Positions 42,001 to 51,000 are shown, counted from the stretch's first letter. The stretch is 54,287 bases of DNA from an uncultured bacterium (GCA_964449295.1 CAYUZN010000001.1:1-54287), one strand, 5' to 3'. Numbers: made by a program.

Positions 42001-45000
42001 GTCGCTAGCAACTCCTTGCTCCATGAAGTAATCTAGAATTGAACCCTTTACAAAATTAGTAAGCTGTTCTCTTAATTTTTCATCTTCATCGCTTAAGTTG
42101 GTTTTGAAAATAGCAGCTCCTACCTCTGCCAATTCGTCATACTTATCAGCATCTCTACTTTGCATGTCTTCAATCATTGCTTGGGCTAATTCATTTTTCT
42201 TTGTTTCATCTTCGTCTAATTTTTGATAAGCTTCGACTACAGGAGAAACAAGATCTTTATCTTCTCTAAGAAAGGGTGTCTCTCGTAGTCTTTCTAAGAC
42301 AGTTATTAGACAGATATCAATGTACAACTCAAACACTAATTTGCGTTGTTCTGCAGGAGAAAATACGATGTCCATTTTGTAACTTGTTACATCTATTGGA
42401 GCCATTGAAGTGTCATGGATCTTATTGTGAATTAATAGACTAACTTTTTGAATCCATTGTGAAACAAAACTATGTGACTTTACCAAGAGGTAACTTCCTA
42501 TACCACCAATGCCTCCACAAATAAGAGGGAAAGCAATTTTTGGAGAGATATTGAATACTCGATAACTTATTGAACAAATGCGCTCTAAAGAAGAAACCTG
42601 AGTCATTCCAAATCCAAGAGCTACACCTAAAATAGGAGCCATAATCACTAGGATTTTTTCTAATTTTTCATGCCATGTTAAAAAATTTCTGACTGGGGCA
42701 GTTAAGGGAATCATTTCCCTACACAGACCACATGGTAGCAATGTTATATCTGAGTGTGTTCTCTGCAGTGTTCGAGTCCAACTATCAAAACAACGTTTAT
42801 GTAGGTAGTTTATGCAGCTCACTACAAGAAAGTTGATGGATTTCTCCCTGTTGAAGCGAAGATTGACATACAAAACAAATTCCATCCATATTTAATCCTC
42901 CACTATAAATAAGAGCAATTATAGCATAATTCATAGATTGTTCGAGATAAGTTTTGAAAGCCCAATTTTTTGTGCGTAATGTGTAAACGCTTAATTTTTA
43001 AAATAATATGTTTAAGGCTGTAAAACTGGAGGCGGTGTGACTTGAACACACGAAATCCGAAGGTGGAAGATTTACGTCTCCTCTCTTATAAAAAATGAAT
43101 TCAATTTAGAATTTTTATTCGAAAAATTTCTTGATTCTATTTGTGATTTTCTTCAAACTTTTGATTTCATGGAGTTTTTATGTCGAATAATTCTTCTCTA
43201 GTAACACCTAGCCTATCTTTTGAGTCCCTGAAAAAATATACTCAACATGGCACTGAATATTGGAGTGCGAGAGAACTCCAACTTTGCCTGGGTTATTCAG
43301 AATGGAGAAAGTTTGAAAATACGATAAAAAAAGCGATAGCCTCTTGTAAGCAGTCTAAAAATGATCCAAAGCATCACTTTGTCGGCGCCGACAAACCGAT
43401 CACTGGAGGAAAAGGCTCAGTGCAAGTAGTGAATGACTACCATCTCTCTCGTTTTGCCTGCTATCTCATTGCGCAGAACGGAGATCCAAGAAAACCAGAA
43501 ATTGCTGAAGCTCAAAAATATTTCGCAATTCAGACAAGGCGTCAAGAAATCTCAGATGAAATGGCAGCTGACCTTGAGAGACTAGAAACACGTGAGCAAG
43601 CTTCAGTAGAATTCAAAGCTCTGTCTGGTGCCGCTCAAGATGCTGGTGTTCAAGACAAAATGTTTGGGCTCTTTCATGATGCGGGATATAAAGGACTCTA
43701 TGGAGGCCTTGGAGTAGATGCGATTAAGTCTAGAAAAGGGATCTCATCCAAAGAACAGCTGATGGATCGTATGGATACAACTGAACTTGCTGCCAATTTA
43801 TTTCGTATGACGCAAACTAAAGACAAACTAAAAAATGAACGTATTAAAAATCAAAGAGATGCAATGGTAACTCATGAACTCGTGGGAAAAAAGGTTCGTG
43901 CTGCAATTGAAGAAATCGGTGGCACTCTTCCTGAAAACATTCCTCCTGCAGAACCGATCAAGAAAGTGGCAAAGCGATTGAAAACAGCGCGTCCTCGCTT
44001 AGCTCTCGACCCAAAAGATGCAGCAGGTATTGCTTAAAAAAGACGAGGAAAAATGAGTCTAGAAACAAAAATTGCTAAATACTTTGAGCTAAGGCAGCAA
44101 ATTGAAGAACTAGAAAATCAAAAAAAAGCCCTAGTACTCTGTAACAAAAATTTTGACGGCTATTTTGAAGTGAAAGCCTCGCGGTTTGGCGATTGTAAAG
44201 GGGGGGTAATATTAAATGCAATATAACCCCCCTTTGCGATCGCCAAACCCCGAGAGCTTTGACTTTCAAAATAGTCATCAAAATTTCTGTTACAGAGTAC
44301 TAGTTACTGAAGTTTTAGACTTGCTGCCTCAAGAAACAGCAACCGTTTCTATCCCTGGTTACAGGATAAAACGAGCTTCTCTGCTTTCTATTAAAACCTC
44401 TCTTGAAAGCGCAAAACAATTAGGAGCCGTTAAAATGAAAGAGATTGTCGACAAAGAGAAAATCAAAAAACTCTATAGAGAAGGCCATAATCCGCCAGAT
44501 GTCTCAGAAGTTCATTTTATCCAAGTTTACAATGAAGCAATTCTTGAAGGTCTATAATAGGTATTACATGCTTGTAGTTCTGGCCACAGGTTTTTTATGT
44601 ACTAGTCTCTCTTCTCACATTTCTGATGTTTTATCAGGGAAAAGCGAACCAGAGCTTTATACATCCTATGACGATACGTCTGACAATCGGGCGAGTGTTA
44701 TTGCAGAAGTGGCAAATTTGTACGGATACTTTTTGACATATCAGGCTCATGAGAAGAAGCAGTGTTCCAAACTCCGCAATAAAGGGATATGGCTTGAGAT
44801 CAAAACAGCGGATGATTATTTTCCACCGCAAGAAAAAGTAGACGAGTTTATTCACAATTTAATAGGGGCAATGGAAGTTGATTTTGCCAAAAATAAAGAA
44901 TGGGGAATTTCAACAAAGCTTGGAGTAGATTATGGGCCTGATTGTGGGGCTCTTTATGAAGCCTTTCAGAAGACGGCTCTCGATATCAGATGTTATTCTC

Positions 45001-48000: not shown

Positions 48001-51000
48001 AATGACTCGCATCAAACCAGCGATAACCTGTTCCAATTGCCCAAGAGTCTTTGTAACTGTATTCAAATCCGCCAAGAAGCGTATAAGTAAAATTTTTGCG
48101 AAGCGTGTATTGATTTTCTGCAGAAAAGCTGTCGTATGGGGAAGAGCCTCCTGTAGGAGACAGTCCTGTTGTTCTGTAGTTCGTTATCAGAAGATTGCTA
48201 ACACCCAACCCGACGCCTATCATTGGATAGATCTTGCCGCAACCGATATTCCAATTGAAATAAGGGAGGCCTCGTCCAAGAAGATTTGCCGAAAAGAGAA
48301 TAGGTGTGACATTGAGATCGAATTCTCTTGTGTAAGATCCGCTGCCAGTAGTGGGTGTTTGGAACTTCCTATATTTAAAAGTTGAACGATTGGAGATACT
48401 AACTTCTAGATCGACTATATGCAACAGCTCGTACCCAATGCTTAAGCTGGCAATGGGACAATTTCCTAATTTTGAATCATAACCTTGAATTGCCGGATTC
48501 CAGGGAGGAGAGGGAGCAACAACATTGGCAGATTCAGAGCATGAGATACCTGAACCAACTTTAATATAGAAGGAATAATCCTGGGATTGGCAGCAACATT
48601 TAGCAGTACTTAAAATGGTGATTATCAGTAAAGAAAGCCTGGCTAAGACGCATTTCATAAAGTTCCTTTTTAGAAAATCGTTCCGACCCTTGAAAATTTA
48701 AAATAGATTTTTTCGCCATCCGATGAAACAATTAAGTCAAATGTTTGTCCAAAAAAAGGAGCAAATCCAACCTTTGTCGTTGCTACCACCGTGCATTCAG
48801 TAACCATAGAATTTATGATGCTGTCTAATTCTAAGTTGATTAATGTTGTGGGTGTAAACCAGGTTACTATTAACCCATCAGCAGCAGATAAATAATTGGA
48901 TATATCTGTATAGATTCCATCTGCATTCTGCATACATAAAAAAGAGGCAGAGCATGTTCCGACTTTCGTATTATTACCATTATAAATAGGCGCTCTTCCT
49001 GCAAGATATCTCGAAGCTATTGTTGAACTGCTTCCCGATACATTAGATGTTGGTATTTCAATAAAGCTTTCTGCAAAGTCGGCGATATACAGATAATATG
49101 TTATTGTTTTTGGCTCAGCGCGATCAATACCATATAAAGGTTGCCAATGACAGATCAAACCAATAAATAACAATAAAAGAAGCGTTGCACAGCCATTTTT
49201 TTTGATCAACATCATAGCCTCTATTCTACACTTTATCTCTGATCCTTCGAAGCTTAACATGAGGGGGATTATTCATCTAAAAAATTTTCTAAAAGTCTTT
49301 ACTAAACGTTAAGTTCAACTGATTCTATTCATCATAAACATCCCTTCTAAAATCTATGGCAACCAGAATGACAATTTTTTTCTCGGCGTCAATACGGTAA
49401 ATGACTCGATAACAGCTTACTCTCATACGCCTGTGACCCTTCCAGCTATATTGGATCGATTTCTAATCCTTCTTTAATTGCCTTATATATCATTTTCTGG
49501 GCAGATTTTGGCAGCGCTTTGAATTGATCGACTACATTTTAAACTAAGAATTCTACTCTAAATCGAGATCCTTCCATACCTTCTCCGCTGGGACTCTTGC
49601 TTTTCCTTTCGCTCTAATTTCAGCTTCCTCAGCTATGCGAGATAGATAGATGTCTTATCTCATTTCGAGAGCTTGTTCTACTAATTCTTGCGTTATATTT
49701 GAAAGAGACGTGTCTTCTTTTTTAGCTAAAAGATTGACAGCTTGCAAGGTAGAAGATTTAAAAGTGATATTGATACGTTTTTGCCTAGGAACTGTAGGGC
49801 TTCTGTGTTTAGTAGCCATTGATTCTTATTCCCCAAGTTTAGCCAGTTCAACATTATATGTATCACATATGTATTCATTTCTCGACAGAAATAAATTTAA
49901 TAAAAAATTATTTATACAATTCTTTTTAATATGCGATAAGTTGTAAATCCTCCTAAACCTCCAAAGAACATAGCAGAAATTTCTCTAATACGATCCGCAG
50001 GATTTAGTTTATTGAAGGCATGAACACCTTTCACAAATAAAGTACAATCAATAACCGCCATCAAAGATAACGAAAACAATTTATTCTCATTGAAATTGAA
50101 CACCGGAAATCTATCTATAATTGGAGACATTACCATTATTGTCATTATAGAACTTGCAACTATAGACACCATAGAAATAATTACTTGATAACCTACTAAC
50201 ATAACACGTCCTACTAAAGAAACGCTCTCTATCTTCAATGCGAATTTTTCTCCCAATTTGGCAAATAAAATAAACGCTAAAGCAGAGGTAATAATAACTA
50301 GATACTTTTTATTTTTTTCCCATTCTATTTCTTTAATTAGTGGATGATTTAAGTCTAATGCAAACCCTCTCCTGCACACACCGCATTTTAATTTATTTTC
50401 ATCTTGTTCTCTTAATACAGACCTAACGAATAGTTCATAGCATTCTTTATCTAATGTATGCTCCTGTTCAACGCAAGGTCGAACAACTTGTGTTTGATCT
50501 TCGATTGGACATATACAAAACCAGCAAGTAGGTAAATCCATAAATTTAAAGGGGGTTATAAAATTGGGGGCGGTGTGACTCGAACACACGAAACCCGAAG
50601 GTGGGGGATTTACAGTCCCCTGCAATTGCCACTATGCGACACCCCCCAAAATCAGAAAAGATTGCTGGCGAAAGGACTTGAACCCTCAACCGTCCGCTTA
50701 CAAGGCGGATGCTCTACCATTGAGCTACACCAGCAAAAGATGAAAGGATCTTATAACAAATAAAAGCTTATTCCTCAAGAATTTACATATTTAGATGCTT
50801 TTCATCAAGAGGTTCCTCAGGTGTTTTAGGCTGAGAAATAGTAACATTTCTTTGAAATAATGAGGAAATTTTATTAGAACTAGTGAGAACTTGCGCAGAA
50901 CTAAGAAGCGACTTCGGCGCTTTTGATTCACAACATTTTTTAAATTTTTTGCCAGAGCCACAAGGACATGGATCGTTTCTTCCTGGTTTAGACATACTAA

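Follow-up and report, generated by a model that had tools for sequence, protein, structure and literature searches.

An intact tRNA-Tyr gene and a degenerate partial copy of it bracket about 7.5 kb of accessory genes in an environmental chlamydia, which raises the question of whether this arrangement was left by an integrase and whether the enclosed genes arrived together. The locus lies in a stretch of 54,287 nucleotides (CAYUZN010000001.1, positions 1-54287, assembly GCA_964449295.1; hereafter the window) from a Rhabdochlamydiaceae metagenome-assembled genome (MAG) of 1.9 Mb in 175 contigs, designated G000. A preliminary description of the window, made from the sequence alone, had interpreted the block as a single decayed island targeted to the tRNA gene. 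Our analysis favors, with a probability of about 0.75, a reading in which the partial copy (43021-43082) is the scar of a tyrosine integrase acting through an anticodon-loop crossover, the integrase has since been lost, and the interval is an immobile mosaic.

The locus was compared with two congeners (G001 and G002), with 40 relatives, and with 128-129 genomes of the family; genomes, contigs and loci carry our own G, C and L numbers. In addition, 160 loci anchored on the TilS-like gene next to the tRNA genes were fetched from genome and metagenome collections, 61 of them being unique and having at least 3 kb of flank. The genome and metagenome scans yielded no genome of the same species (closest TilS identity, 84-86%), and a look-up of the exact TilS protein was empty.

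The tRNA-Tyr gene and its partial copy

The features that define the site are the following.

38909-40126: major facilitator superfamily transporter, conserved in both congeners
40750-41649, minus strand: aldo/keto reductase (AKR), backbone anchor on the far side (Pfam; 68-69% amino acid identity and same position in G001 and G002)
41677-42889, minus strand: RING-like copy 2, frameshifted near its N-terminus, just outside the bracket and beyond the tRNA remnant
43021-43082, minus strand: displaced 3' fragment of tRNA-Tyr, putative attR-type scar (BLAST, MAFFT and profile search)
49912-50541, minus strand: RING-like copy 3, a Cys-rich membrane protein with no family match, starting 23 nt past the tRNA 3' end
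50565-50646, minus strand: intact tRNA-Tyr(GTA) (ARAGORN), the presumed integration target and regenerated attL-side copy
50662-50735, minus strand: tRNA-Thr(TGT) (ARAGORN), part of the conserved backbone TilS, small open reading frame (ORF), tRNA-Thr, tRNA-Tyr
51062-51823, plus strand: PP-loop (TilS-like) gene, backbone anchor on the tRNA side and query for the 160 related loci

The order PP-loop/TilS, small ORF, tRNA-Thr, tRNA-Tyr is kept across the family and the order, and everything downstream of tRNA-Tyr is variable. The variable zone between AKR and tRNA-Tyr measures about 8.9 kb in G000, 7.5 kb of which lie between the scar and the tRNA gene; other genera likewise have AKR on the downstream side of tRNA-Tyr. 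Both flanks of the block are syntenic with one contig of G001, an observation that bears on the continuity of the MAG contig.

ARAGORN placed the intact tRNA-Tyr at the position and on the strand first described, and its sequence is identical to that of the tRNA-Tyr of G001. The partial copy had been described as a direct repeat of 49 nt at 43027-43075 with five mismatches. Reading of both stretches confirmed this core, all five mismatches being GC to AT transitions in the copy, and BLAST and MAFFT lengthened the match to 62 nt (43021-43082 against 50559-50621; 87% identity, E 4e-15 genome-wide). The copy lies in direct orientation, 3' of tRNA-Tyr; its limits are the 5' side of the anticodon stem/loop, near tRNA position 28-34, and a point some 6-12 nt beyond the CCA end; 8 of 12 positions match just beyond this end, and there is no similarity further out. 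Scar and tRNA gene are separated by about 8 differences in 62 nt (~0.14 substitutions per site), and the single 1-nt deletion in the copy removes T33 of the anticodon loop.

BLAST revealed two copies in total in the whole assembly. Furthermore, an nhmmer profile of the 3' part of chlamydial tRNA-Tyr matched the window at these two places only, with E values of 5.7e-17 and 3.7e-10 against 0.3 for the next best match, and revealed no further or older tRNA-Tyr fragment in the window, in G001 or in G002. Because there are two copies genome-wide and the profile finds nothing else in the window, the partial copy is real, and neither a chance match nor a dispersed repeat. The latter origin, which the preliminary description had considered as a way in which its reading might fail, is ruled out by a genome-wide copy number of two. 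Altogether, these sequence data support the identification of the copy as a displaced 3' tDNA fragment, in exactly the geometry that is left by integrase-mediated insertion.

Use of the site in related chlamydiae

Direct copies of the resident tRNA-Tyr were observed 2-34 kb downstream of it in 8 of the 40 relatives, with identities of 89-100%; each runs from (G)GACTGTAAAT, within the anticodon loop, to the tRNA 3' end. A tRNA-Tyr copy within 10 kb is carried by 15 of the 61 unique TilS-anchored loci (25%), 14 of these 15 copies start at tRNA position 26-32, and 10 of the 15 are 100% identical to the tRNA. The flank motif TTCTcTTGGACGATTCTTAA stands directly after the intact tRNA-Tyr in the repeat-free genomes G001 and G020, and after the distal repeat in G013 and G023, as would be seen after insertion of DNA between tRNA-Tyr and its native flank. 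Compensatory changes in the variable arm and the T stem set the distal copies of G010 and G034 apart from the resident tRNA, so that these copies come from another functional tRNA-Tyr allele. The distal repeats thus represent genuine boundaries of insertion. In the Rhabdochlamydiaceae and neighboring chlamydial families, the tRNA-Tyr gene that follows TilS and tRNA-Thr is an integration hotspot that has been used repeatedly.

Other arrangements were seen at the same site. Four short islets of 2-4 kb without integrase, L025 (G021), L026 (G015), L027 (G023) and L028 (G040), are closed by 51-61-nt copies with 96-100% identity, and their cargo consists, respectively, of AbiEii/AbiEi; a trypsin-like protease with an ankyrin protein; TnpB with an oxidoreductase and a helix-turn-helix antitoxin; and an M48 peptidase with a GNAT protein. 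Contig C135 of G178 has a single tRNA-Tyr (18196-18279) and two nested fragments (14345-14397 and 3135-3195), and L071 likewise has a nested pair, as expected from successive insertions at one site. A further class of tRNA-Tyr repeat, starting at tRNA position 49 in the T arm, was found in L118 and L156, and suggests another integrase type that uses the tRNA-Tyr gene. Contig C1 of G029 contains two full-length tRNA-Thr/tRNA-Tyr pairs (115649-115825 and 127817-127994), 12 kb apart. As for TTCTcTTGGACGATTCTTAA itself, it is a conserved hairpin-like flank located just past tRNA-Tyr in several genera (17500-17530 of L023 in G001); it may be the native terminator, and serves as a marker for the original junction.

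The limits of these repeats bear on a different origin of the fragment, proposed in the preliminary description as a duplication of the junction between the tRNA gene and a RING-like gene, to which any other partial duplication of tRNA-Tyr without an integrase may be added. The tRNA and the fragment are indeed each followed by a RING-like gene on their strand, at distances first given as 24 and about 140 nt and measured here to the ATG as 23 and 137 nt, and the tRNA pairs of G029 show that segmental duplication of the locus occurs. However, the similarity ends about 12 nt past the tRNA, and the 23-nt and 137-nt spacers do not align. Between the two RING-like proteins, identity is 32% over 93 amino acids, in comparison with 87% for a functionless piece of tRNA. 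In addition, the 5' limit of the fragment falls at the anticodon stem/loop, near the start shared by 14 of the 15 independent repeats, which random truncation would not reproduce. Junction duplication is rejected on these grounds, and an origin of this general kind is highly improbable.

Integrases accompany the repeat in several relatives. The integrase of G026 (PF00589) starts 447 nt past tRNA-Tyr and on its strand; DUF3987 and primase genes come next, and a perfect 53-nt repeat 14.5 kb away closes the island. L066 and L114 have integrases of the G026 family (39-63% identity) at 300-450 nt from tRNA-Tyr, L065 has one at 2 kb, and the gene is reduced to a 106-amino acid stump in L190 and to three fragments in L099; a different integrase type adjoins the distal repeat in G010. 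Most short islets have no integrase. G015, a genome (99% complete) without integrase, has a 100% identical repeat and only Xer-type recombinases. The intact, truncated and fragmented integrases form a decay series, with the window at its end.

The preliminary description had found neither an integrase nor a remnant of one, and had proposed tBLASTn as a check. This was borne out by all searches performed. The PF00589 search of the whole genome gave no match on the contig of the window, and in tBLASTn searches with all ORFs from eight related islands, no integrase remnant appeared in the window. With the integrases of G026 and G010 as queries (E ≤ 100), the best tBLASTn result, of 26 amino acids, fell inside the AAA-ATPase gene but on its opposite strand and is not a credible match, and a custom integrase hidden Markov model at the same threshold gave no signal between 40.1 and 50.7 kb. 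Elsewhere in G000 there are two phage-type integrases (C83:5775-6260 and C22:3613-4083) that share 89% identity; their family is distinct from the one linked to tRNA-Tyr, and their contigs carry no tRNA genes.

The scar reading would imply the following sequence of events. The attP site of an element would have carried a tRNA copy that began at the anticodon loop and ended slightly beyond the 3' end, and integration would have rebuilt an intact tRNA at one end of the insert while pushing the old 3' part to its far end. The integrase would then have been lost. RING-like copy 3 occupies the position at which related islands carry this gene, and that place would now be held by it together with a dead ParE/ribbon-helix-helix (RHH) pair. 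The scar would have drifted, and accessory, partly defense-like cargo would have built up in several steps. We infer that an integrase made this particular scar and was later deleted at this locus, and that the cargo accumulated stepwise.

Genes of the block and their separate histories

The genes located between the fragment and RING-like copy 3 are the following.

43180-44037, plus strand: dinD (DNA-damage-inducible protein D), with a Bro-N domain (NF008573, 348 bits, cut-off 242; PADLOC candidate defense protein PDC-S13, E 2e-107)
44053-44557, plus strand: small ORF split by a palindromic element; its homolog in G002 (L200:14534-14950) is intact
44131-44303: the 173-bp palindromic element that splits the small ORF, resembling a miniature inverted-repeat transposable element (MITE)
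44445-45086, plus strand: ORF of 213 amino acids with no family match
45083-46819, minus strand: protein with AAA-ATPase_like and PD-(D/E)XK (PDDEXK_9) domains (Pfam, E 2.5e-47 and 2.5e-17)
46865-47869, plus strand: patatin phospholipase resembling CapV, the effector of the cyclic oligonucleotide-based antiphage signaling system (CBASS) (PADLOC phospholipase effector, E 4e-64; NF041079, 189.7 bits, cut-off 200)
47882-48658, minus strand: protein resembling an outer-membrane beta-barrel, downstream half of a two-gene cassette (OMP_b-brl, E 4e-5, below cut-off)
48670-49260, minus strand: putative secreted protein (called as such in the preliminary description), upstream half of the same cassette
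49325-49819, minus strand: decayed type II toxin-antitoxin pair, RHH and ParE/RelE, recognized by six-frame reading as a pair of pseudogenes

Our searches agree with the gene list of the preliminary description (dinD, the split small ORF, the AAA-ATPase/PD-(D/E)XK gene, the patatin gene, the outer-membrane barrel and the decayed RelE/RHH module), the OMP_b-brl match of the barrel being sub-threshold. The distributions of these genes in the family differ. The cassette for the secreted protein and the outer-membrane protein (OMP) occurs in 13 of 128 family genomes, in nine other genera and with 75-87% DNA identity, and is absent from both congeners. Its dS (synonymous substitutions per synonymous site) relative to other genera is 0.39-0.66 for the OMP gene and 0.30-0.45 for the secreted protein gene, whereas in the same genome pairs the backbone genes TilS, SSF and SurE show proportions of synonymous differences (pS) of 0.71-0.82 and saturated dS values. 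This low divergence against a saturated backbone demonstrates recent transfer between genera. The similarity among cassettes (47882-49291 in the window; loci L068 and L207-L214) stops exactly at the stop codon of the OMP gene and starts about 60 nt inside the upstream gene. G235 and G242 again have the cassette 2-5 kb past the 3' side of tRNA-Tyr and on the strand of that gene; in G277 it lies near AKR, and in six other genomes elsewhere. Judged from these comparisons, the pair is a circulating cassette that was recently exchanged between genera.

The dinD gene is multicopy and was seen in about half of the 129 Rhabdochlamydiaceae genomes, often as two copies each, with 70-79% DNA identity across genera. 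Copies were found in G002 on C9 and C26. The closest relative of the window gene is that of G226 (79%), and the copy at this site in G002 shows 73%, so that a common position does not prove orthology; the distribution of dinD is like that of a mobile gene with several copies. The AAA-ATPase/PD-(D/E)XK gene, which is also patchily distributed or multicopy within the family, has a paralog on C21 (63% amino acid and 67% DNA identity), and its closest DNA relative is in G249, of another genus (78%). The patatin gene has no close relative among the 40 relatives and no relative at the DNA level in the family. The accessory genes of the block differ in their histories and form a mosaic; genomic islands of this kind are ordinary.

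The comparison with the congeners for an empty site, suggested in the preliminary description, gave a divided answer. The order in G001 is AKR, flavin adenine dinucleotide (FAD) monooxygenase, RhuM-like fragments, native flank and tRNA-Tyr, without the repeat and without any gene of the block, although with other genes in its place. In G002, whose order was built from two contigs overlapping by 149 identical bases, tRNA-Tyr is followed by a gene of about 190 amino acids, the small ORF, a tetratricopeptide-repeat gene, a gene of 244 amino acids, dinD, a gene of 383 amino acids, and glyoxalase, EVE, MarR, PALP, FAD monooxygenase and AKR genes. This block of about 8.4 kb also lacks the fragment, and dinD and the small ORF, arranged in the same order, are all that it has in common with G000. 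Neither the window nor G002 contains the native-flank motif, so that no clean empty site is available. Between G000 and G002, the backbone dS is 1.45-1.7 and that of dinD is saturated; the pooled estimate for the small ORF is about 0.7, from 69 synonymous sites, too small a number to be decisive.

Several observations weigh against the scar reading. First, the stretch from AKR to tRNA-Tyr in G002 has dinD and the small ORF but no tRNA remnant. Second, the dinD genes of G000 and G002 are as diverged as the backbone, whereas the remnant in the window has diverged only slightly from its tRNA. Together, the backbone-level divergence of dinD, the small divergence of the remnant and its absence from G002 mean that a single simple event does not fit all the data. 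Third, the DNA past the remnant, which encodes RING-like copy 2, is not a native flank of the G001 type. Fourth, the composition of the block is ordinary: its GC content is 0.380 in comparison with 0.387 ± 0.016 (26th percentile of 390 genome windows), and its tetranucleotide distance is at the 70th percentile of these 390 windows. Composition thus does not mark the block as horizontally acquired DNA, and the GC profile proposed in the preliminary description gave no support for an island. Finally, four methods found no trace of an integrase between 40.1 and 50.7 kb, so that the recombinase step is a presumed one at this locus.

The collinearity of dinD and the small ORF in G000 and G002 would be accommodated if the fragment were as old as the split between these two genomes or older, and had been kept recognizable by gene conversion from the tRNA 7.5 kb away; a genus-ancestral island would then have been lost in G001 and remodeled in G002. 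The 100% identical repeats of many relatives, even in a genome without integrase such as G015, are also in its favor. On the other hand, the 1-nt deletion and the 8 substitutions in the fragment indicate that conversion is not ongoing, and G002 retains no trace of the fragment. Furthermore, vertical orthology of dinD with G002, which would count as proof against an island, is weakened by the multicopy nature of the gene and by the closer relationship with G226 than with G002. We consider this history quite improbable.

A simpler alternative is that the whole 7.5 kb entered in one integration as a single island that subsequently lost the integrase gene and degenerated at the site. All block genes do lie between the intact tRNA and the fragment, G001 lacks the entire block, and the pseudogenes (the ParE/RHH pair and the MITE-split ORF) fit an old element; a composite island may also have arrived in one step. 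However, dinD and the small ORF are at this site in G002 without the fragment, the distributions and ages of the secreted protein/OMP cassette, dinD, the AAA-ATPase/PD-(D/E)XK gene and the unique patatin gene differ, and the only paralogs of RING-like copy 3 sit just outside the bracket. Entry as a single island is thus unlikely. Accordingly, the scar and the absence of the block from G001 uphold one part of the preliminary description, whereas the separate gene histories and the two genes shared with G002 do not agree with its single decayed island. That description had held that repeat-free relatives with the same gene block would speak against it, and this occurs in part: G002 is repeat-free and has two of the genes, and G001 has none.

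Regarding the remaining features of the block, the MITE-like element is present in 5-6 copies in the genome (also at 27878-27965 and on C21, C155, C9 and C99) and has relatives in other genera (G211, G209 and G276). The small-ORF homolog of G002 lacks it and represents the empty site, with a 3-nt overlap. The patatin gene is an orphan effector-type gene, divergent from the AAA-ATPase/PD-(D/E)XK gene and with the OMP gene as its other neighbor. No SMODS cyclase (PF18144) was found in the whole genome, and CBASS is defined by a cyclase neighbor; a functional CBASS system is ruled out because the genome has no cyclase. In the toxin-antitoxin pair, the RHH antitoxin (RHH_5, E 3e-4) contains an in-frame stop, and the toxin (ParE_toxin, 24.4 bits, cut-off 23) is a C-terminal piece, frameshifted and interrupted, so the two intact adjacent ORFs of a type II system are not present.

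The RING-like family comprises three local paralogs only (at 40120, 41677 and 49912) and was found in none of the 40 relatives. In copy 2, the ATG at 42889 opens the Cys-rich frame, which stops after 30 codons (42797-42889), and the long ORF resumes in another frame from 42885; this copy is absent from G001 and G002. Copies 2 and 3 have no Pfam or NCBIfam match, the best matches of the 40120 copy (zf-RING_4 and zf-RING_2, E 0.2-0.4) are below the cut-offs, and no RING/U-box domain was recognized. The RING-like label thus expresses a weak resemblance at the level of sub-threshold matches.

Known islands and the tRNA-Tyr site of the family

In the Islander approach, a regenerated tDNA and a displaced fragment of it mark the endpoints of an island, and anticodon-loop crossovers form class A (Hudson, Lau & Williams, PMC4383910). 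The block in the window is bounded by an intact tDNA on one side and by a directly oriented 3' fragment of that tDNA on the other; the limit of the fragment falls at a recognized crossover sublocation, the anticodon loop, and accessory cargo lies in between. It differs from Islander tDNA islands in its 87% fragment, mosaic cargo and ordinary composition, and no tyrosine integrase lies inside the interval, so that it would not pass the Islander filter for active islands.

The integrase-bearing tRNA-Tyr islands of chlamydiae (G026/L031, L065, L066, L114 and G010/L032) share with the window the target, the limits of the repeat and the TilS, tRNA-Thr, tRNA-Tyr context, and related islands carry similar types of cargo (toxin-antitoxin or abortive-infection modules, and Bro-N/dinD in G013). 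They differ from it by their integrase, 300-450 nt from the tRNA, and, in G026 and G010, by genes of primase/helicase type and near-perfect repeats; among the island proteins of these relatives, only Bro-N has a homolog in the window. The locus also resembles Islander tandems in the repeated use of one tRNA site, in strata of cargo and in partial tRNA copies, which are nested in G178 and L071. Cis-mobilizable elements and the tycheposon islands of Prochlorococcus are likewise accreted arrays or integrase-less leftovers. Unlike such tandem or accreted arrays, the window retains one fragment, so its accretion is deduced from gene histories.

A further island of environmental chlamydiae between short direct repeats is Pam100G of Protochlamydia amoebophila UWE25, which is 100 kb long and carries an F-like conjugative transfer system; the source paper also treats tRNA genes extensively (PMC548262). 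In comparison with Pam100G, the locus studied here is 7.5 kb long, has no transfer or integration genes and has tRNA-Tyr as its target. Among the papers of the library searched, none combined chlamydiae, tRNA-Tyr and islands, and a relevant paper on the Rhabdochlamydiaceae does not mention a tRNA-Tyr hotspot, the integrase family, the islets or the OMP/secreted protein cassette. The feature is of a well-known kind, and this locus is a further instance of it.

Taken alone, the locus is an ordinary dead tRNA-linked island, and its wider value is as an entry point to the tRNA-Tyr hotspot. A broader proposal, tentative and in our view doubtful, is that tRNA-Tyr might be a family-wide site of cargo exchange in the Rhabdochlamydiaceae and neighboring chlamydiae, at which integrase-less islets of 1-5 kb between perfect copies of the tRNA-Tyr att segment would be inserted and stacked, perhaps moved in trans by one dedicated integrase family; the window would be an old, eroded example, and the OMP/secreted protein cassette a cargo still in circulation. 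If true, this would mean cassette-like swapping of defense and host-interaction genes (abortive-infection or toxin-antitoxin modules, ankyrin proteins and proteases) in obligate intracellular bacteria. The finding bears on how surface, defense and effector genes are renewed in environmental chlamydiae, whose opportunities for gene exchange are limited.

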